IMG/VR virus record: IMGVR_UViG_3300012347_000185
Coordinates: 1-42,444 of that record
Strand: one strand, 5' to 3'
DNA: 42,444 nucleotides
Source of the DNA: a virus
The notes beneath the pieces were generated by a model. It was not told the DNA's origin, did not search any database, and was given only the letters and a program-made list of their open reading frames with translations. This document shows positions 31,026 to 42,444 of this stretch, in pieces (positions within the stretch are counted from its first letter, which is position 1; each line of letters begins with the position of its first letter). A program made the translations under genes and the position numbers.

Positions 31026-31241
31026 ATGGAACTAGAACACCGCATCATTAAGCTGGAGCTGAAGGTGGATGACCACGCAGAGGAACTGAAGAAACTTCAA
31101 GACATCTCTGCGGATCTCCGTAAGTCTCTTGCAGGTATCGAGAAGACACTCGCTCAGATCAAGTACTTGGCCATGGGTGCCGTGGCTGTCGTTGTCTCTC
31201 AGTCTGTTGGAATCGACAAAGCTCTCAAACTATTCCTATGA
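31026..31241 (+). CDS. Small membrane protein (coiled-coil N-terminus, C-terminal TM), T7 gp17.5 position
   Basis: 71 aa. Hydrophobic segment YLAMGAVAVVVSQSVGI. Lies just before the small terminase gene. Confidence 0.55.
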   Translation: MELEHRIIKLELKVDDHAEELKKLQDISADLRKSLAGIEKTLAQIKYLAMGAVAVVVSQSVGIDKALKLFL

Positions 31242-31504
31242 CCATGAACAAAGCTGACGAGAAGGCTCTTGGTAGCCTTCACGGTAAGCTGGCAGAGGTA
31301 TTGAAAGATGCCCTGTCTCAGGACTTCACTGATCCTGAGACGGGGATCTCCATGCCCCCTGCAGCTATCCTCAACGTTGCCCGACAGTTTCTGAAGGACA
31401 ACAAGATTGAGGCTGTGGCTGCTCAGGGTTCCCCTCTGGCTGACCTTGCCGATCTCCCCATCTTCGAGGACGACAACATCGTCCCCATCCGTAAATCATC
31501 CTAA
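31238..31504 (+). CDS. Terminase small subunit (T7 gp18-like), positional call
   Basis: 88 aa (T7 gp18 is of similar size). ATGA overlap with the upstream gene. Upstream of the large terminase gene. Confidence 0.55.
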   Translation: MTMNKADEKALGSLHGKLAEVLKDALSQDFTDPETGISMPPAAILNVARQFLKDNKIEAVAAQGSPLADLADLPIFEDDNIVPIRKSS

Positions 31505-31725
31505 TGTACACAATCTACGGCAGATCTGGCTGCGCCCCCTGCATGGCCGCTAAAGACCTCATTGGTTCTACAGGGGTTGAATTTACCTATGTCGATGTCA
31601 TGGCTCTCCCAAAAGGAGAGTTGGCAGACTTCCTCTCGAAGGGATTCAAGACAGTCCCCCAAGTATTCTGGGAGGATACCCACATTGGTGGACTTGATGA
31701 CCTCCGCAGGCACCTAATTAAATAA
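31504..31725 (+). CDS. Glutaredoxin/NrdH-like redoxin
   Basis: 73 aa. CAPC active site near the N-terminus, TVPQVF..D.HIGG.DDL. Confidence 0.85.
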   Translation: MYTIYGRSGCAPCMAAKDLIGSTGVEFTYVDVMALPKGELADFLSKGFKTVPQVFWEDTHIGGLDDLRRHLIK

Positions 31726-31809: not shown

Positions 31810-33471
31810 ATGACCCCATCCAAACATCCAGCCCTGGCAGACTTCAGGGTATTCATGTTCCTCGTGTGGAAACACCTTGGTCTCCCAGAGCCTACTCCGG
31901 TTCAATACGACATTGCCCATTACCTACAGAACGGACCTAGACGATCCGTCATCGAGGCCTTTCGAGGGGTAGGCAAGTCTTGGATCACCTCAGCGTTTGT
32001 CTGCTGGTTGATCCTGAACAACCCCCAGTTGAAGATCCTGGTGGTGTCTGCCTCCAAGGAACGAGCTGATGCCTTCTCCACATTCGTCAAGAGGTTGATC
32101 AACGAGATCCCCATGCTGCAACACCTGAAGCCTCAGGATGGCCAGCGGGACTCTGTGATCGCCTTTGATGTGGGACCAGCTACCCCAGACCACAGTCCCT
32201 CGGTGAAATCCGTGGGTATCACTGGGCAGATCACGGGTTCCCGTGCAGACATCCTGATTGCTGATGACGTGGAGGTACCCAACAACTCCTCCACCCAGAT
32301 GATGCGGGATAAACTCTCGGAGGCTGTCAAGGAATTCGATGCGATCTTGAAGCCTGGTGGCCGTATCCTGTACCTCGGTACCCCTCAGACAGAGATGTCC
32401 CTGTACAACCAGCTCCCAGAGCGTGGCTATGAGGTCCGTATCTGGCCAGCCCTGTACCCAGAGTTGCAGCAAGTGATCAAGTACCAGGGCAAACTGGCCC
32501 CGATGATCACCAAGGCACTGGAGGCTTCTGCAGATAACGCTGGGATGCCTACGGACTCCAAGCGATTCGACGAGGCAGACCTGCTGGAGCGGAGAGCTTC
32601 CTACGGTAAGGCAGGCTTTGCCCTCCAGTTCCAGCTCGACACGTCTCTGAGTGATGCCGATCGATACCCTCTGAAGGTCTCAGACCTGATCATCCAGAAT
32701 CTGGGTCCTACCATGGGGCACCTGAAGTTGGCATGGGCTGCTGCACCAGAACTGTGCATCAATGACATCCCCAATGTGGCTCTCACAGGGGACAGGTACT
32801 ACCGACCCATGTGGCACTCTGACGATATGTCTGAGTACACCGGGTCTGTCATGTCCATCGACCCCTCTGGTCGTGGTAAGGACGAGACAGGCTATGCCGT
32901 GGTCAAGGCTCTGGCTGGTAACCTGTTTCTCACAGAAGCTGGAGGGATCACCGGAGGCTATGAGCTGGAGACACTCGAAGCTCTGGCCTATGCAGCCAAG
33001 AGGAATCAGGTCAAGTACATCGTCATCGAGGCTAACTTCGGTGATGGTATGTTCACCCAGCTCCTCAAGCCTGTCCTTCAGAGGATCTACCCCTGCACTG
33101 TGGAGGAGGTAAAGCACTCCACCCAGAAGGAAGCCCGTATCATCGACACCCTTGAACCTGTGATGTCCACACATAGACTCATAGTGGACCAGAGGGTGAT
33201 CCAGAAGGACTTCGACACAGCTAAGGATGTCAAGTACTCCCTGTTCTACCAACTCACCCGTATCACCAGAGACAGGGGAGCCTTGGTTCATGACGATAGG
33301 TTGGATGCCTTGGCTATTGCTGTGAACTACTGGACCGAGACCATGGCCAGAGACAACGACAGAGCAGCCTCAGATATCCGTGGGACAGCCATAGATAAGG
33401 AACTGAAGAAGTTCATGGGGAGTGTCCTAGGGATGAAACCTAAGGCAACCTCATGGATGTCTAGATCCTGA
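31810..33471 (+). CDS. Terminase large subunit (T7 gp19-like)
   Basis: 553 aa. Walker A-like FRGVGKS, ILIADDVE Walker B. Last gene of the structural block. Confidence 0.93.
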   Translation: MTPSKHPALADFRVFMFLVWKHLGLPEPTPVQYDIAHYLQNGPRRSVIEAFRGVGKSWITSAFVCWLILNNPQLKILVVSASKERADAFSTFVKRLINEIPMLQHLKPQDGQRDSVIAFDVGPATPDHSPSVKSVGITGQITGSRADILIADDVEVPNNSSTQMMRDKLSEAVKEFDAILKPGGRILYLGTPQTEMSLYNQLPERGYEVRIWPALYPELQQVIKYQGKLAPMITKALEASADNAGMPTDSKRFDEADLLERRASYGKAGFALQFQLDTSLSDADRYPLKVSDLIIQNLGPTMGHLKLAWAAAPELCINDIPNVALTGDRYYRPMWHSDDMSEYTGSVMSIDPSGRGKDETGYAVVKALAGNLFLTEAGGITGGYELETLEALAYAAKRNQVKYIVIEANFGDGMFTQLLKPVLQRIYPCTVEEVKHSTQKEARIIDTLEPVMSTHRLIVDQRVIQKDFDTAKDVKYSLFYQLTRITRDRGALVHDDRLDALAIAVNYWTETMARDNDRAASDIRGTAIDKELKKFMGSVLGMKPKATSWMSRS

Positions 33472-33479
33472 GGAGATCT

Positions 33480-33499
33480 ATGGTTGCCCAATTGGAAAG
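33480..33499 (+). promoter_or_regulatory. Candidate phage-RNAP promoter, copy 4 (ATGGTTGCCCAATTGGAAAG)
   Basis: 9 nt after the terminase stop. Confidence 0.55.
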
Positions 33500-33754: not shown

Positions 33755-34174
33755 ATGGATATACCAAAGGATAGACCAGAGGCTTTGTCTCTAGGTATGG
33801 ATATTTATTACGGTAATGAGTGTAAACATTGTGGTACCACAGTAAAGAGAGTCAAGAAGTATGACTGCCTAGAGTGTCACAGGGTTGCTCGTAAAGGCTA
33901 TCTCAAGGATTTCCGCAAGACTCCTAAGGGGAGGGCTGTTAGACGCTCTCAGAAGATCCTTAGAGACCGTACACAACGACAGGCCATGCCTCCTTGGGCT
34001 AACCGAGAGAAGATCCTAGAGATTTATCTGAAGGCTCGTGAGATGGGGATGCATGTGGATCACATCGTTCCGTTGAACCATGGGTTGGTCTGTGGGTTAC
34101 ACAACGAGTTCAACCTACAGCTTCTTCCGCCAGACGAGAACATTGCCAAGAGTAATCTCTTTGAGGTGTCTTGA
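33755..34174 (+). CDS. HNH endonuclease (second copy, unrelated in sequence to the first)
   Basis: 139 aa. Cys pairs CKHC...CLEC, then HVDHIVPLNHGLVCGLHNEFNLQLLPPDENIAKSN (H-N-N/H core). The surrounding segment is AT-richer. Confidence 0.85.
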   Translation: MDIPKDRPEALSLGMDIYYGNECKHCGTTVKRVKKYDCLECHRVARKGYLKDFRKTPKGRAVRRSQKILRDRTQRQAMPPWANREKILEIYLKAREMGMHVDHIVPLNHGLVCGLHNEFNLQLLPPDENIAKSNLFEVS

Positions 34175-34440
34175 GGGGTCCAGAATAATTTGGTAGAAAA
34201 ATATGTGACCTATACCGCATATTGTCGAGCGGCTGAGTCCCCCTCGGCCCCTACCGTGTGCGCCCGGGCGATCCACGCACGTTGACGGGCGCGGTATTGC
34301 CTGCCCGATACCGCCCACGTTGACACGCGAGGTGTCCCAAGGGGCTGTAAGTTGTTGATTTCATTGGAGTTTCACTAGCTCAGAAAGCTAGTTGGCACCA
34401 TGCGCGTGACATCCTGCGGGTGTGCGAGGTTGTCCCAAGG

Positions 34441-34473
34441 TTATCCACAGGACTTATCCACAGGTTATGCACT
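34441..34473 (+). promoter_or_regulatory. DnaA-box cluster: two perfect TTATCCACA boxes plus one degenerate box
   Basis: TTATCCACA at 34441-34449 and 34454-34462, and TTATGCACT at 34465-34473. All are direct repeats in non-coding DNA. Confidence 0.5.
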
Positions 34474-34543
34474 GTGTTGGTGCGTTTGCATCAGTTCGTT
34501 TTTACTGTGTTTTTATACAGTACTTTGAGACATCCTCAGGTCA

Positions 34544-34683
34544 CACCTCAAGCTCACCTCAAGCTCACCTCAAGCTCACCACCAGACCACCACCAGATCA
34601 CCTCAAGCTCACCACCAGGTGACACCTCAGGACCTCCACAGATCTGCCCTCAGATCACCTCAAGCTCACCACCAGGTGACACC
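34544..34683 (+). repeat. 11-bp phased tandem array (CACCTCAAGCT / CACCACCAGNT) with an embedded 31-bp perfect direct repeat
   Basis: Seven contiguous 11-mers at 34544-34620. GATCACCTCAAGCTCACCACCAGGTGACACC occurs at 34596-34626 and again at 34653-34683. Confidence 0.9.
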
Positions 34684-34686
34684 CTC

Positions 34687-34725
34687 AAGCCTCAAGCACT
34701 CCACCAGTGCCTGGGGCTTTTTTTT
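34687..34725 (+). terminator. Candidate intrinsic terminator closing the repeat array
   Basis: AAGCC..GCACT-CCACC-AGTGC..GGCTT two-tier stem, immediately followed by T8. Confidence 0.5.
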
Positions 34726-34843
34726 CTGATCTAAGGGTTTGTCCTAATAACTTTTTTTTCATCGGTCGGTTTTTGCCTGTTTTTCTCGATAAAATTCAGC
34801 TCATGCACAGCACACCGCACAGTGCAAACCTGGAGATCACCTC

Positions 34844-35047
34844 ATGAGCTACACTATCACCCGCAAGGTACTTAACGCGATCAAGCCCTACACTGTCACC
34901 ACCCGCGACAGCGATGGCGACACCTTCAAACACAAAGCCTGGAGCACACGTGAGGCTCTGGCCTGGGCTAAGTGCTACGGGCAGGGCTGGGGCACCACTA
35001 CAATTCAAACCCGCACAGGTCGCTTTGTGGCCTCTGTTACCCGCTGA
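34844..35047 (+). CDS. Early hypothetical protein (67 aa)
   Basis: ATG preceded by CCTGGAGATCACCTC. First ORF after the non-coding hub. Confidence 0.6.
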   Translation: MSYTITRKVLNAIKPYTVTTRDSDGDTFKHKAWSTREALAWAKCYGQGWGTTTIQTRTGRFVASVTR

Positions 35048-36867: not shown

Positions 36868-36987
36868 GCACAGCCCAGGTCATCGCACCTGTGCCCCGCT
36901 GATCTTTAACAATCCCCAAGAGTACAAGCATAGGGCGCACCCTGCCATTCGGTGGGGTCTCTGTGTTTGTACCATTGGAGATTCAAC

Positions 36988-37140
36988 ATGACCGAAAATG
37001 ACAAGTTGACAGCCCAAGAGGTTGTCCGTGGGTCTTGGCCCACCTGGCCCTTCACTCGCTTAGGGCGCAAAGACATGACCGATCTCATCAAGAAGCTGGA
37101 GCAGGAGAAGCGAGAGCAACTTGAGGAGGCACTGCTGTGA
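36988..37140 (+). CDS. Early hypothetical protein (50 aa)
   Basis: ATG preceded by TTGGAGATTCAAC. First gene of a chain of overlapping small ORFs. Confidence 0.5.
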   Translation: MTENDKLTAQEVVRGSWPTWPFTRLGRKDMTDLIKKLEQEKREQLEEALL

Positions 37141-38294: not shown

Positions 38295-38642
38295 ATGGTT
38301 GTGCCCCTGAAGGATGCAATTCAGCTAATTCAAGGGATCTCCCAAATAGAACCGGAGATGCCCTTGCAGCAACTACATGTACTACTCCTCATTGCGGAAG
38401 CAGGGGAGGGGACATCACTTACAGACCTGGCCAAGAAAGCAGGCATAGGTCTAGCAACTGCGTCTCGTTATGTTTCCGCACTAGGCAAACAGAACAGGCA
38501 CAGGCAGGAGGGGCTACTTCTAGTAGAATCCTTCGAGGACCCTATGGAAAGGCGAAAAAAGATAATTCGCCTGACAGGTAAGGGTAAATCCGCACTCATG
38601 AAACTGATAGGAGAACTGAATGCCCATCTACCAAAGGGGTGA
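38295..38642 (+). CDS. MarR-family-like winged-helix transcriptional regulator (candidate repressor)
   Basis: 115 aa. SLTDLAKKAGIGLATASRYVSAL...GLLLVESFEDPMERRKKIIRLTGKG fits the MarR HTH plus wing pattern. Confidence 0.75.
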   Translation: MVVPLKDAIQLIQGISQIEPEMPLQQLHVLLLIAEAGEGTSLTDLAKKAGIGLATASRYVSALGKQNRHRQEGLLLVESFEDPMERRKKIIRLTGKGKSALMKLIGELNAHLPKG

Positions 38643-39657
38643 TGCCTTCATGGTGTCAGTCGGAAGTAAGGGAAACCGCTACCGACAGTCCTTCAAGACC
38701 AAACAGGAAGCTGAACTGGCAGAACTGCAGGCATTGACCCGCCTGAAGGCCTCAGGAAGCCCTCTAGAAGCCTCTACAAGCCCCCCAATTGATGTAGTTA
38801 AGGGCTACACACTCAAGGATGCCCACGACCTCACCTGGAGGCTCTACTGGAAAGGTGACAAGGGCAAGGGTTGCCACGAGGTGACCATCAACTGTGTCTT
38901 TCGGACGATCCCGAGTCAGACACTGCTGACCGATATCACTCCCGCAATGGTCCTTGAGGCCATCGAAGAATGGGAGGATGAGGGCAACTCAGGCTCTACG
39001 GTCAACCGCAAGGTGTCTCACATCTCCAAGATGCTGAACACCGCAGCGGAGCAGGGGTGGATCAATGCTGTCCCCAAGCTGCCCCGCAGGAAGCCTGGCA
39101 AGCACCGCATCCGGTGGATGGCCGAGCAGGAGGAGCTGAGGGTCCTGAACGCCTGCACCCAGTTGGGTCTGGACGATCTGAGGGACTTCATCGTGGTGGC
39201 CATCGACACTGGCTTCCGTAGGTCGGAGCTGCTGGGCCTCGTGTCCAACGACTTCGTCAACGGGATGGTCCAGCTCCACGCTGGGTCCACCAAGAGCGAC
39301 AAGGCGAGGGCTGTCCCGGCTACCCGTAGGGTGTCCGAGATCCTCACCCGCAGGTCTGTCAACAGGAAGCTCTTCGACTTCCAGTTCCACACCCTGAGGG
39401 CACGTTGGCTGTCCCTGAAGTCCCACCTAGGGATGGACGATGACACCCAGTTCGTCATCCACATGCTGCGCCATACGTGTGCATCTCGGATGGTCCAGAG
39501 GGGTGTCAACCTGGCCGTGGTTCAGCAGTGGATGGGTCACTCCAACATCGCCACCACGCTACGGTATGCCCACCTTGCACCTGACAGCCTGGCCATCGGA
39601 CGTGAAGCCCTTGAGCAAGTATCCACAGTTCCTCTCTTGAGGGCTGTGAACTGTTGA
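38620..39657 (+). CDS. int: Tyrosine integrase/recombinase
   Basis: 345 aa with GGAG RBS. Catalytic-domain signature: TGFRRSELLGL (Arg), HMLRHTCASRMVQRG (H-x-x-R), GHSNIATTLRYAHL (Tyr). Confidence 0.9.
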   Translation: MPIYQRGDAFMVSVGSKGNRYRQSFKTKQEAELAELQALTRLKASGSPLEASTSPPIDVVKGYTLKDAHDLTWRLYWKGDKGKGCHEVTINCVFRTIPSQTLLTDITPAMVLEAIEEWEDEGNSGSTVNRKVSHISKMLNTAAEQGWINAVPKLPRRKPGKHRIRWMAEQEELRVLNACTQLGLDDLRDFIVVAIDTGFRRSELLGLVSNDFVNGMVQLHAGSTKSDKARAVPATRRVSEILTRRSVNRKLFDFQFHTLRARWLSLKSHLGMDDDTQFVIHMLRHTCASRMVQRGVNLAVVQQWMGHSNIATTLRYAHLAPDSLAIGREALEQVSTVPLLRAVNC

Positions 39658-39750
39658 AACTGAGTTGTCACAGGCCATTGAGCTGTGACATTTGGACTCC
39701 TTTTAGGGACGTTGTGACAACCTAAGTGATTGGAAATACACGGTAAGTAC

Positions 39751-39808
39751 AGCTTGAGGTGCTAGTAACTTAACCGTTGTGGAGGTTCGAGTCCTCTCGA
39801 CCGCACCA
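39751..39808 (+). other. Candidate attP core: 3' two-thirds of a tRNA-Leu(GAG)-like gene
   Basis: Anticodon loop TTGAGGT (39754-39760), GCTAG stem strand, long variable arm, T arm GGAGG-TTCGAGT-CCTCT, acceptor strand CGACCGC, then A and CCA. There is no matching 5' acceptor strand or D arm upstream. Confidence 0.6.
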
Positions 39809-39830
39809 ATCATCCCTAAGGGAAACTGAA

Positions 39831-39867
39831 GAGAACTCCTTGTAAACCAAGGGGTTCTCTTTCGTTT
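39831..39867 (+). terminator. Intrinsic terminator downstream of the tRNA fragment
   Basis: GAGAACTCCTTG-TAAAC-CAAGGGGTTCTC (12-bp stem with one G-T pair), followed by TTTCGTTT. Confidence 0.7.
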
Positions 39868-40004
39868 GACCCCTATAGTTTCCATATGGAATCAATTGTT
39901 CATAGACAACCCTTGCACTAGGGAAATCTTGTGACAACTTTTGTGTCACAGCTGGGACAACTCCTTGCCACTAGACAACCCTTTCGAACAGAGAGGGAAC
40001 GTCT

Positions 40005-40099: not shown

Positions 40100-40133
40100 C
40101 CTATAGTTACCACCACAACAGGAACCATTAGAA

Positions 40134-42444
40134 ATGCAAAACTTTAACCTTGAAGAAGACTTGATGTCACTCCAGATTCAACTGGAGGAGGGGATGACCC
40201 AACGAGGCGCTGAGAAGTACCTCCGGGATGTCTCCAAGGCCATCTCTGCTGGCCGTGAGGAGTCCACCGCATACGGGACAACCATCCTGTCCCACCGCCT
40301 GGAGACCCTCTCCAAGGCCATCGACGAGTGGAAGCAGGTCACCTCCAAGGGTTCCGCTGGGGTGCGCTCTGCGACCTACCCCAAGGTCAAGGACGTAGAC
40401 AGCCGTTTGCTGGCCTTCCTGACCCTCAAGAGCGTCCTGTCGGGCATCTCCAGCCTCAGGACCCTCCAGTTCGTCGGAGTGGCCATAGGGTCGGCTGTGG
40501 AGGACGAGCTGCGGTTCAGCCTGATCCGGGAGACCGAGCGCAAGGCCTACGAGAAGCTGGTCATCGGTGCCAAGAAGCGCACCTCAGGTCACTACCGCCA
40601 CATGTACGCCGTGCGTCAGGCAGATCGTCTCGAGGATGGCTGGAAGCGGTGGGCCCGGACTGACCGCCTCCATGTGGGCATCAAGCTCCTCGACCTGTGC
40701 ATCCAGTCCGTGGGTCTGGTCGAGCTAACCCACCAGAAGGTTGATAAAGATCAATCGATCAAGTACGTGAAGGCCCTGCCCGAGACCCTCGACTGGATCG
40801 AGAAAAAGAACGAGGTCACCCAGTTCCTGCGCCCCGTCTATGAACCCATGGTCGTGATCCCCCGTGATTGGACCACGCCCTTCAACGGGGGGTACATCAG
40901 CTCCAACATCAAGCCCTTGAAAATGGTCAAGACCAAAAACAAGGCCTACCTAGACGAGCTGAAGAACACCGACATGCCCATCGTCTACGAGGCCGTGAAC
41001 GCCCTGCAGAGGACCGCATGGCAGATCAACAGCCAGGTGCTGGAGGTCATGGAGGAACTGTGGGCCACAGGGTCTGAGATCGCAGGGTTGCCTCCTCGTG
41101 AGGGTCTCCCATTGCCCACCAAGCCTCACGACATCGACTCGAATGAGGAAGCCAAGCGTGAGTACCGCATCAAGGCGGCAAAGATCCACGTTCAGAACCT
41201 CTCCCTGCTGGGCCAGAGGATCGGCTTCAACATGGCTCTGGGAATCGCTCGTCGCTACGAGAAGTTCCGCAAGATCCACATGCCCTACCAGTTGGACTTC
41301 CGTGGTCGGATCTACGCGATCCCCCACCTGAATCCACAGGGGGCAGACTTTCAGAAGGCGCTCCTGCGGTTCGCCAATGGGAAACCGTTGGGGTCTGAGG
41401 GTTGGAAATGGTTGGCAATCCACGGTGCCAACGTTGCAGGCTACGACAAGGCCAGCTTTGAAGACCGTGTCAATTGGGTACAAGACAATGAAGATGAAAT
41501 TATCGCTATCGCATCAGACCCTTACAACAACCGAGGGTGGTGTTCTTCTGTGGGAGATGTGGAGATTGACAAGCCCTGGCAGTTCCTTGCCTTTTGCTTC
41601 GAGTGGGCCGGTTTCACCGAGCATGGTGAGTCGTTCGTATCGAAGCTGCCCGTGGCTATGGACGGTTCATGCTCTGGCATCCAGCACTTCTCGGCAATGC
41701 TACGCGATGAAGTCGGAGGATCTGCAGTCAACCTCGTCCCCAGGGAGCTTCCAGCAGATGTCTACCAGCTCGTGGCCAACAAGGTTATGGAACAAGTTGA
41801 GCACGATATTCTGCACGGCACCGAGGACGAGCTGAAGCACACCGAAGCCGGGGTTGCCTACGTCAAGCAGGGGACCAAGGCCATCGCTGCCCAGTGGAAG
41901 GAGTTTGGGATCACCCGCAAGGTGACCAAGCGATCCGTCATGACGCTGGCCTACGGGTCCAAGGAGTACGGCTTCAAGGAGCAGCTCATGGAGGACATCC
42001 TGCGTCCCGCCAAGCAGTCCAACAAGCCCTTCCCCTTCCAGGGTGACGGCTACCAGGCTGCTCAGTACATGGCCAAGGCGATCTGGGTCTCCGTGAACAA
42101 GGTGCTGGTGAAAGCTGGCGAGGCCATGAAGTGGCTCCAAGGTGCCGCCTCTCTGGCAGCATCTGAGGAACTCCCTGTCCGCTGGTCTACCGCCGTGGGC
42201 TTCCCCGTGATGCAGGCCTATGCCGATCTGGAGAAGCGCAAGGTCAAGACCGCGATCAACGGGAAGCTGGTGTACCTGACCATGTACCAAGACAAGGACA
42301 ATCTGGACCGCCGCAAGCAGTCCTCAGGGATCGCCCCCAACTTTGTCCACTCCTGCGATGCAGCACACATGATGCTGACCGTGACGAGGGCCAAGCAGGC
42401 AGGCATCGACAACTTCGCCATGATCCACGACTCGTTCGGGACCA
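40134..42444 (+). CDS. T7-like single-subunit RNA polymerase, N-terminal and central part (runs off the window; continues at base 56)
   Basis: MQNFNLEED... Contains YQLDFRGRIY, PWQFLAFCFEW, MDGSCSGIQHFSAMLRD, TRKVTKRSVMTLAYG, HDSFGT. Joined with 56..258 it gives an 837-aa protein. Confidence 0.95.
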   Translation, partial: MQNFNLEEDLMSLQIQLEEGMTQRGAEKYLRDVSKAISAGREESTAYGTTILSHRLETLSKAIDEWKQVTSKGSAGVRSATYPKVKDVDSRLLAFLTLKSVLSGISSLRTLQFVGVAIGSAVEDELRFSLIRETERKAYEKLVIGAKKRTSGHYRHMYAVRQADRLEDGWKRWARTDRLHVGIKLLDLCIQSVGLVELTHQKVDKDQSIKYVKALPETLDWIEKKNEVTQFLRPVYEPMVVIPRDWTTPFNGGYISSNIKPLKMVKTKNKAYLDELKNTDMPIVYEAVNALQRTAWQINSQVLEVMEELWATGSEIAGLPPREGLPLPTKPHDIDSNEEAKREYRIKAAKIHVQNLSLLGQRIGFNMALGIARRYEKFRKIHMPYQLDFRGRIYAIPHLNPQGADFQKALLRFANGKPLGSEGWKWLAIHGANVAGYDKASFEDRVNWVQDNEDEIIAIASDPYNNRGWCSSVGDVEIDKPWQFLAFCFEWAGFTEHGESFVSKLPVAMDGSCSGIQHFSAMLRDEVGGSAVNLVPRELPADVYQLVANKVMEQVEHDILHGTEDELKHTEAGVAYVKQGTKAIAAQWKEFGITRKVTKRSVMTLAYGSKEYGFKEQLMEDILRPAKQSNKPFPFQGDGYQAAQYMAKAIWVSVNKVLVKAGEAMKWLQGAASLAASEELPVRWSTAVGFPVMQAYADLEKRKVKTAINGKLVYLTMYQDKDNLDRRKQSSGIAPNFVHSCDAAHMMLTVTRAKQAGIDNFAMIHDSFGT
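42390..42444 (+). repeat. 55-nt terminal overlap identical to bases 1-55 (circular-assembly closure)
   Basis: Direct comparison of both ends shows every base identical. Confidence 0.98.

Follow-up and report, generated by a model that had tools for sequence, protein, structure and literature searches.

The stretch of DNA analysed here (the window: 42,444 nucleotides, positions 1 to 42,444 of the IMG/VR virus record IMGVR_UViG_3300012347_000185) carries an array of short direct repeats at 34533-34707 on the + strand, which, judged by its sequence and surroundings, is very probably the left-end short-repeat array of a T7-like phage, i.e., the counterpart of the CCTAAAG array of T7. Arrays of this kind have been known since T7 was sequenced, and the one described here is another instance, real and conserved. 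The left-end and right-end arrays of T7 are presumably those named SRL and SRR, which Dunn and Studier reportedly described in 1983 as short-repeat arrays flanking the terminal repeat; no paper describing SRL or SRR was found in the open full-text literature. A preliminary description of the window, made from its letters alone, had stated that no such phage element was described, which is contradicted by T7, where the same arrangement was verified on NC_001604. Signs that the array is a ribosome-mimicking RNA or an origin of replication are absent, and it probably acts as a set of repeated sites on the DNA; its position, orientation, sequence skeleton, phasing, flanking signals and parallel with T7 were obtained by comparison, and its function is what we infer.

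The core of the array is a run of seven contiguous 11-mers at 34544-34620, just as the preliminary description had read it: in an 11-base register, CACCTCAAGCT stands three times from 34544, followed by CACCACCAGAC at 34577, CACCACCAGAT at 34588, CACCTCAAGCT again at 34599, and CACCACCAGGT at 34610. Tandem Repeats Finder, which had been proposed as a check, recovered 34544-34613 with a period of 11, 6.4 copies, 86% matches and a score of 91, and the lag-11 identity over 66 bp was 0.83 in the array, whereas 17 chunks of coding sequence from the window gave 0.42-0.62 at their best lag. Degenerate units extend the array on both sides (34533-34707). The further copies announced beyond 34620 are therefore present, up to 34707, while the direct repeat given as 31 bp is in fact an exact repeat of 33 bp (34594-34626 = 34651-34683), the longest found, and points to a recent duplication. 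In total, 13 CCNNNAG heptamers (7 CCTCAAG, 5 CCACCAG, and 1 CCCTCAG) lie within 300 bp, all on the + strand and 10 of them in one phased chain, i.e., a 7-bp core is repeated head-to-tail in a single orientation with short variable spacers. The + strand of the array is composed of 45% C and 13% G (C/G = 78/23 over 175 nt). In the whole window CCTCAAG occurs 34 times vs. 9.3 expected, with 25 of the 34 on the + strand, which may be a codon effect, as all genes are on this strand.

The array is closed by an intrinsic terminator (34687-34725, + strand), composed of a hairpin at 34687-34719 (-18.0 kcal/mol), whose 5' arm includes the last CCTCAAG unit, and of eight T at 34718-34725. The stem is kept in 11 homologous hairpins of relatives, with compensatory changes at 6 of 13 pairs, and one U.G pair is invariant across them, so the structure fits a + strand RNA only. 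The hairpin plus T8 noticed earlier is hence a real rightward terminator, and its presence means that the array can be transcribed; the suggestion that it may be is reasonable, given that a phage-promoter-like motif reads into the region and the terminator ends it.

The genomic setting is that of T7. The window is a complete, circular assembly of a temperate-type T7-like phage genome, since its ends are identical over 55 bp (1-55 = 42390-42444, an assembly overlap) and the gene of a T7-type single-subunit RNA polymerase, starting at 40107, spans the window boundary and is split by it. This polymerase matches PF00940 and PF14700 in Pfam. The small terminase subunit (TerS, T7 gp18 family; 31238-31504, + strand) matches PF11123 (E 2e-18) and has 46% identity to the annotated TerS of vRsoP-WF2, and the large subunit (TerL, T7 type; 31810-33471, + strand) matches PF22530 (E 9e-40), so that a single-subunit RNA polymerase, a gp18/gp19-type terminase and genes on one strand only are found together. 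TerL, which has a T7-type nuclease domain, shares 75-77% identity with the TerL proteins of Ralstonia phages (genus Gyeongsanvirus) and marks the genetic right end, and TerS is the candidate binder of the junction repeats. The array sits in 670 bp of non-coding sequence that separate TerL and an HNH-like open reading frame (ORF), the genes of the right end, from the first early ORF at 34844. This gap is the concatemer junction, in which both ends of a virion genome meet with their direct terminal repeat. The position of the array in the gap is established, while the adjacency to the terminal repeat discussed below rests on predicted boundaries.

A blastn search of 34150-34900 against 50,697 phage records gave no match, and the comparison was therefore made through loci anchored on TerL: 80 viral contigs (64-98% TerL identity), 47 bacterial-genome loci (at most 65%), and several GenBank phages; loci used in the comparison carry handles of the form L007 in the following. 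In many of them, a de novo periodicity scan detected strong short-period arrays 0.7-1.3 kb past TerL, at lag 11 in 7 loci, at lag 12 in 4, and at lag 10 in 1. Among the 32 genomes with an ATC(T/A/G)GT anchor, 25 had at least three phased CCNNNAG heptamers within 300 bp past the anchor and 13 had at least five, so that the search for arrays at the same position in relatives, which the preliminary description had asked for, was successful. In a meta-profile of 30 non-identical loci, with the first ATCRGT as zero point, CCNNNAG reached 1.2-2.3 per 50 bp at 0 to +150 vs. a background of 0.28 (4-8 fold), and the inverted form CTNNNGG reached 0.9-1.8 per 50 bp at -500 to -300, left of the terminal repeat, vs. 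a background of 0.34 (3-5 fold); the C-G skew was +0.40 on the right and -0.25 on the left. The landmarks follow the order known from T7: promoter after TerL, repeats, AAAAAT plus 11 nt, terminal repeat, ATC(T/A)GT, and heptamer array.

Only three things are kept across relatives, namely the skeleton CC-N3-AG, the orientation, and a spacing of the units by 10-13 bp, with four spacer bases varying freely. The period was 11 in 75 of 118 adjacent pairs, 12 in 29, 13 in 9, and 10 in 5. Unit cores of close relatives include CCTCAAG, CCACAAG, CCGCAAG, CCTCTAG, CCTAGAG, CCTTTAG, CCTAAAG and CCACCAG, and different variants stand in adjacent blocks within single arrays. CCTCAAG matches the T7 core CCTAAAG at 6 of 7 positions, and CCTAAAG itself is present in the arrays of L023, together with CCTCAAG, and L047. 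In the cultured Limnohabitans phage YIMV22061, at least 10 CCACCAG units, spaced by 11-12 bp, follow directly on ATCTGT. Over 79 distinct units from 26 genomes, G makes up 9.5% of the spacers on the + strand vs. 24% in the adjacent terminal repeat, and 12.7% of the central heptamer positions. Within two pairs of genomes, the window with L007 (100% TerS identity) and L022 with L023, TerS is the same protein and the arrays differ. The central positions of the heptamer are therefore not read by TerS, and a co-variation between TerS and units, which had been considered, is ruled out. L021 (88% TerS identity) and the WF2/BB8/RsoP1EGY group are essentially without an array. From these sequences, the array appears conserved as a kind, fast-evolving in its details, and dispensable in some lineages. 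In the Pseudomonas phage LUZ100 (L086 472-491; record 36971-36990), two CCTCAAG heptamers 12 bp apart followed by degenerate copies were observed ~110 bp left of the right terminal repeat, i.e., the same heptamer in a distant T7-like phage of another host.

As the assembly is circular, the direct terminal repeat (TR) is collapsed to one copy, and its limits were predicted from three phages with known ends. In T7, the right end reads ...AAAAATctgagtgacta/TCTCACAG (the slash marking the boundary), the TR covers 1-160 and is directly followed by ATCTGTT and then by CCTAAAG heptamers with a spacing of mostly 13 bp (175 to ~355; NC_001604). The annotated 281-bp repeat of vRsoP-WF2 starts at AAAAATttgaaagcccc/ACTCGAAA and ends at ...ggcc/ATCAGTTtgcttt, and the 271-bp TR of Pasto, determined by PhageTerm, starts at AAAAATccgagacactg/AACTCGAC and ends at ...ctccct/ATCTGTttc. 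All three obey one boundary rule, namely AAAAAT plus 11 nt, then the TR, then ATC(T/A)GT. In the window, AAAAAT plus 11 nt is found at 34197-34213 (+ strand), with the motif and spacing seen before the TR start in the three phages, and ATCAGTTCGTTTT, i.e., ATCAGTT plus a T run, at 34490-34502 (+ strand). The rule thus predicts a direct TR of 276 bp at 34214-34489 (+ strand), and the array begins ~45 bp to the right of it, behind ATCAGTT, so that an ATCTGTT-type signal appears to precede the array at the TR boundary. ATCAGTTCGTTTT is similar to ATCTGTT plus a T run, the class II signal at which T7 RNA polymerase pauses or terminates.

To the right of ATCAGTT the junction contains, in this order, a LexA box, the array, the terminator, a palindrome, a second ATCGGT and the first gene. 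The motif ATCRGTNNNNTTT has three matches in the 42-kb window vs. 0.43 expected, two of which flank the array (34490 and 34761), and the second of these, the ATCGGTCGGTTTT motif (ATCGGT; 34761-34773, + strand), closes the array region. The degenerate palindrome CTAAGGGtttgtCCTAA (34731-34747), built of half-sites of the same family as the array units and present as CTAGGGtttgtCCCTAG in L004, L007, L014 and L018, lies between the terminator and this second ATCGGT. Behind it stands a -10-like TAAAAT at 34790-34795, replaced at a fixed distance of ~29 nt by TAGAAT, TACAAT or TACACT in the same four relatives; the -10-like hexamers behind each ATCRGT motif were found by hand and are unproven. To the left of the TR, two inverted heptamer units, TTGAGGTGT and CTTGAGGGG (34161-34178, - strand), are read here as the remnant of a left-hand array. 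The predicted TR also contains a hairpin at 34373-34393, which is conserved in relatives.

The right TR boundary has an alternative. In WF2 and BB8 a hairpin-T8 terminator lies inside the TR, ~36 nt before ATCAGT, and by synteny with them the TR of the present phage could extend to 34760 and so include the array. We prefer 34489, since nearly all relatives have their first ATCRGT at about the WF2 distance from TerL, the TR then has a length like those of WF2 and Pasto, and repeat rows come to lie on either side of it, as in the meta-profile. The first ATCRGT lies +690 to +810 from TerL in nearly all relatives and +1018 here, the difference being due to the extra HNH-like ORF. In contig L050, the predicted TR start is present once only and the contig ends 18 nt past its T8 terminator.

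Two further signals belong to the junction. The phage-promoter-like motif GGTTGCCCAATTGG (33482-33495, + strand) lies 11 bp past the TerL stop codon and points rightward into the junction. In the form GGTTGCMCAATTGG, it occurs seven times in the window vs. 0.52 expected, always on the + strand (278, 2133, 7133, 11299, 33482, 35967, and 40007), with one copy directly upstream of the gene encoding the RNA polymerase and one directly after TerL, and is likely the promoter of the phage RNA polymerase. Such a motif was found 3-136 bp past TerL in 14 of 34 relatives, and it corresponds in position to the T7 promoter phiOR, ~100 bp past gene 19. An IHF consensus site, YAANNNNTTGATW (TAAGTTGTTGATT), is located inside the TR (34348-34360, + strand) and is the sole match in the window; its place is conserved in relatives, including the Limnohabitans phage, and in vRsoP-WF2 and BB8 with one mismatch each. 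TAAGTnnTTGATTT, also considered as a phage promoter, was dropped, having a single copy in the genome and fitting the IHF consensus instead.

These elements can be joined into a proposal in which the array would be a cis-acting row of low-specificity DNA sites, where only CC and AG, three bases apart, would be read. The sites, phased at 11-13 bp and pointing away from the TR, would be mirrored by a row across it. Late in infection, the phage RNA polymerase would start at the 33482 promoter, cross the TR, and pause at ATCAGTT, upon which a gp18-type TerS ring and TerL would assemble on the flanking repeat rows, assisted by an IHF bend in the TR, and the maturation machinery would set or stabilise two cuts, 34213/34214 and 34489/34490. 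In T7, the RNA polymerase paused at the class II signal was reported to interact with gp18/gp19 and thereby to start maturation (PMC3276506), and T7 phagemids require the terminal repeat together with the pac site (PMC13236587). The array itself would tune the efficiency of maturation and be non-essential, which would explain the drift in copy number and units as well as the relatives without arrays. A DNA platform is supported by the landmark order shared with T7, the annotated (WF2) and PhageTerm-determined (Pasto) ends that obey the boundary rule, the phased heptamers in 25 of 32 genomes, the enrichment on both sides of the TR in the meta-profile, the half-site palindrome between the terminator and the second ATCGGT, and the IHF site in the TR. 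Taken as a whole, we regard this as the best explanation at hand, with a chance somewhat short of even, and its mechanistic part, a DNA-level cis-acting platform in end maturation, as a tentative possibility.

Several points weigh against this proposal. Phages with identical TerS carry differing units (window and L007; L022 and L023), and L021 and the phages of the WF2 group lack an array. The phasing on one helix face is broken by periods of 12 bp (29 of the 118 pairs) and 13 bp (9 pairs, and also T7), and the depletion of G on the + strand reaches the free spacers (9.5% vs. 24% in the TR), which a protein binding double-stranded DNA does not need. The right-end array of T7 is oriented like the left-end one and not mirrored, and if packaging starts at the right end, as it does in T7, the array lies on the unpackaged side of the first cut. 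The cuts, the binding, the pausing and the TR ends are moreover predictions for the present phage.

The main rival reading is set at the RNA level, where the array would be transcribed into an unstructured, C-rich and G-poor stretch with C motifs every 11-13 nt and serve as a Rho loading site or transcription insulator; we consider this unlikely. In one form, the array, together with the class II-like motifs and the hairpin-T8, may stop transcripts leaving the TR before they enter the early genes; in another, a discrete RNA of ~200 nt might arise from a LexA-gated start near 34525. Besides the G-poor + strand, which extends to spacers and central positions, the terminator is a + strand RNA structure, the phage promoter reads into the region, and a LexA box with a -10-like TACAGT stands directly upstream. 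The period also reportedly matches the spacing of C residues in Rho-dependent terminators, which Alifano is said to have placed in the 11-13 range in 1991. Rut sites are likewise untranslated C-rich and G-poor regions of more than 80 nt with regularly spaced C motifs; they are not tandem repeats, however, and here the intrinsic terminator that already follows the array makes a Rho site redundant. In addition, a sigma-70 scan found no consensus promoter on the + strand in 34190-34843, the predicted fold of the array RNA is modest (-30.7 kcal/mol, z = -2.2), and the depletion of G could go back to one ancestral unit without having been selected. It is suggested in a 2026 preprint that the T7 counterpart of this region, still listed there as unassigned, may function as RNA, and that the concatemer junction (CJ) signal of T7 also serves as an E. 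coli promoter; stable transcripts of the T7 region, however, were not abundant according to the same preprint. A broader version, in which the junction arrays of the T7 family, including T7 SRL, would be elements acting as single strands and not double-strand sites, with a LexA-gated C-rich RNA of ~200 nt used for Rho loading or regulation of the early operon, draws on the G-poor + strand even in variable spacers and on the period floating between 11 and 13; it seems rather improbable to us. If true, a C-rich repeat RNA, started at the TR boundary and ended by the conserved terminator, would insulate or regulate the early operon at the genome end that enters first.

The turnover of the array could also be read as neutral, with the array being a slippage-prone minisatellite without sequence-specific function, generated by slippage or unequal recombination and tolerated in the non-coding junction. 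The differences in copy number and unit type between phages with identical TerS, the variant blocks lying side by side, the absence of the array in L021 and the WF2/BB8 group, and the recent duplication indicated by the 33-bp exact repeat would all fit. However, position, orientation and CC-N3-AG are kept from T7 to the present clade, in 25 of 32 genomes, a mirror-image array stands across the TR, and the strand-specific depletion of G is consistent across genomes; a purely neutral array is thus also a rather improbable explanation.

A replication origin, in which a DnaA filament would extend from three boxes over the 11-bp units, or the units would be iterons, with opening of the T-rich DNA, is very improbable. 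The DnaA boxes noted near the array in the preliminary description are real: three lie within 33 bp inside the predicted TR (34441-34473, + strand; the perfect box TTATCCACA at 34441 and 34454, TTATGCACT at 34465), forming a cluster 70 bp upstream of the array. An exact 11-bp register links the units to the box at 34465 (34465 + 77 = 34542), and some relatives have units one base away from a DnaA box (e.g., TTATCCTCAAG and TCATCCACAAG in L020 and L005) or DnaA boxes arrayed at 11 bp, with up to five perfect boxes as TTATCCACAGG units (L022 6291-6353; L023 3274-3346). This register is, however, not kept in L007, L018, L023, L035 and L071 and is present only here, which also led us to reject a DnaA filament continuing into the array, and arrays without any DnaA box occur in T7, the Limnohabitans phage YIMV22061, L012, L031 and L047. 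The T-rich stretch exists as described, but is accounted for by the T run of ATCAGTTCGTTTT and the LexA box (34503-34522). The early ORFs scanned, which were not every ORF of the genome, contained no Rep-like protein, the only DNA-binding family among them being MarR/IclR-like. Arrays without DnaA boxes and the lack of a Rep-like protein among the early ORFs scanned thus make the reading as iterons or origin fail. Phages of the T7 type use a helicase-primase and a polymerase of their own and start replication at origins that depend on promoters, and we know of no description of host DnaA being recruited to the end region of a T7-like phage.

The resemblance to known origin elements is limited in the same way. 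With iterons the array shares tandem direct repeats, roughly helical phasing and a place next to DnaA boxes and A+T-rich DNA; yet iterons are usually 17-22 bp long, near-identical within a replicon and accompanied by the gene of their cognate Rep initiator, whereas the units here are heterogeneous, and changed or absent in close relatives. E. coli oriC reportedly contains arrays of low-affinity DnaA sites, 9-mers 2 bp apart, as Rozgaja et al. are said to have described in 2011, and the 11-bp phasing, the single orientation and the strong boxes nearby are alike; the units here nevertheless violate the conserved ACA of the DnaA box, as CCTCA breaks the critical A7 of TTATCCACA (position 7 of the consensus TTATNCACA), and their register is not conserved.

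A Chi-like decoy is highly improbable: the five CCACCAG units are the complement of CTGGTGG, i.e., 7/8 of E. coli Chi (GCTGGTGG), are oriented such that RecBCD coming in from the left end would read them, and could guard this first-entering end, at least 10 of them stand at the same place in the cultured Limnohabitans phage, and GCTGGTGG itself occurs five times on the top and once on the bottom strand of the window, but most relatives use CCTCAAG, CCACAAG or CCTCTAG and T7 uses CCTAAAG, the 5' G of Chi is missing from every unit, the consensus is that of E. coli and may not be that of the host, and the top-strand bias can be a codon effect.

The reading offered in the preliminary description as an alternative to an origin, that a + strand RNA would act as an anti-Shine-Dalgarno (anti-SD) mimic and sponge ribosome-binding sites, or a - strand RNA would capture ribosomes, is exceedingly improbable, for although the array has two copies of GATCACCTC and the first leader a third, and the terminator lets + strand transcription end, the CCUCC core is absent (CACCTCC occurs 0 times in the array, and GGAG sites need CUCC), the CA before CCTC is spacer and gives way to tcat, acaa, agat or other sequences in relatives, GAGGTG precedes only 3 of 66 candidate starts, and neither terminator nor promoter evidence was found on the - strand. 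The conserved skeleton being CC-N3-AG rather than CACCTC, the reading fails. The identity with the 16S rRNA 3' end that had suggested it is real for the two copies of GATCACCTC in the array (34596 and 34653) but stops after CCUC; further copies are at 34835 and, inside TerL, at 31983. Similarly, the leader of the first gene does share GATCACCTC (at 34835) next to its GGAG, but GATCACC is the usual spacer of the group between SD and ATG, as seen in CCTAAGGAAATCACCATG of L004 and L014. The T7 array contains CACCTCCTAA, showing that look-alikes of the 16S end arise easily in C-rich repeats, and Rfam returned only sub-threshold chance matches.

The surroundings of the junction hold further host-factor sites and genes. 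A perfect LexA box, TACTGTGTTTTTATACAGTA (34503-34522), lies directly behind the ATCAGT motif, with the -10-like TACAGT beside it. In relatives, the same slot is occupied by LexA-like boxes (L007, L008, L018, L021, and L071) or by other palindromes, namely GTTGT-N8/9-ACAAC (L008, L014, and L017) and TTAGTG-N6-CTAAC (L004, L005, and L010), which suggests an exchangeable operator slot at the putative TR boundary. The packing of IHF, DnaA and LexA sites into the TR region of temperate-type T7-like phages was unexpected. The first early ORF (34844-35047, + strand) encodes 67 aa and is preceded by GGAG at 34832-34835. Between TerS and TerL, a small glutaredoxin-like ORF (31504-31725) with a CxxC motif was recognised by eye, and between TerL and the TR, the HNH-like ORF (33755-34174; DHIVPL...GLHN...N by eye, no Pfam match), which is missing from most relatives and whose last codons overlap the two inverted heptamer units.

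The temperate character of the phage is reflected by a tyrosine integrase (38620-39657) and a MarR/IclR-like regulator (38295-38642) just upstream of the gene for the RNA polymerase, a pairing shared with LUZ100 and further T7-like phages that show temperate features (PMC10134795). GGTTCGAGTCCTCTCGACCGCACCA (39776-39809), downstream of the integrase, resembles the 3' part of a tRNA gene and is a candidate attP core; ARAGORN found no complete tRNA. TGTGACA/TGTCACA motifs occur several times in 39660-39960, between the integrase and the RNA polymerase gene, and may be operators of the MarR-like regulator; paired TTGTCAC/TGTCAC motifs were also seen inside the TR of L008, L017, L018 and L035. Prophage relatives, searched in 185,579 genomes, reached at most 65% TerL identity, and the host assignment accordingly stops at probably Burkholderiales.

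The natural variants narrow the question of what the junction repeats of T7 do, without answering it. Any role has to be compatible with the CC-N3-AG skeleton, a period floating between 11 and 13 bp, a + strand poor in G including the spacers, a mirror array left of the TR, and dispensability in some lineages. With the boundary rule (AAAAAT-N11, TR, ATC(T/A)GT), the ends of virion DNA can be predicted from contigs that are assembled in circularly permuted form, and for annotation, such arrays in T7-like contigs are best taken as marks of genome ends, not as origins or regulatory RNAs. The Limnohabitans phage YIMV22061 is in culture and has a large array, so that a deletion could be tried there.

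Among known systems, the cos site of lambda (R sites of cosB, IHF site I1, and cosQ) is alike in combining repeated small-terminase sites and an IHF bend by a cut site, and there, too, the translocating terminase meets a signal before the final cut. It differs in its unrelated terminase family and in its cohesive ends without a direct TR, and the lambda R sites are 16 bp long, few and non-tandem, while binding in the present array is a prediction. The class II signal of T7 is comparable as well: ATCAGTT matches it at 6 of 7 positions, is followed by a T run on the non-template strand, stands at the predicted right TR boundary, and has a promoter after TerL upstream of it. Position 4 differs (A/G instead of T), and the present clade has two to three copies per junction. 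Since any base change in the T7 signal was reported to abolish termination, ATCAGTT would need to be specific for the phage's own polymerase. The closest system is the T7 array. There, the period is 13 bp instead of 11 bp, and the right-end array is oriented like the left one, whereas it is inverted in the present clade; the intrinsic terminator and second ATCGGT motif after the array are found only here, and the LexA, DnaA and IHF sites that precede the array here are lacking at that place in T7. Both arrays nonetheless belong to T7-like genomes, lie directly to the right of ATC(T/A)GT and, by the boundaries predicted here, of the TR, consist of ~12 head-to-tail heptamers in one orientation, and have a top strand rich in C and poor in G.

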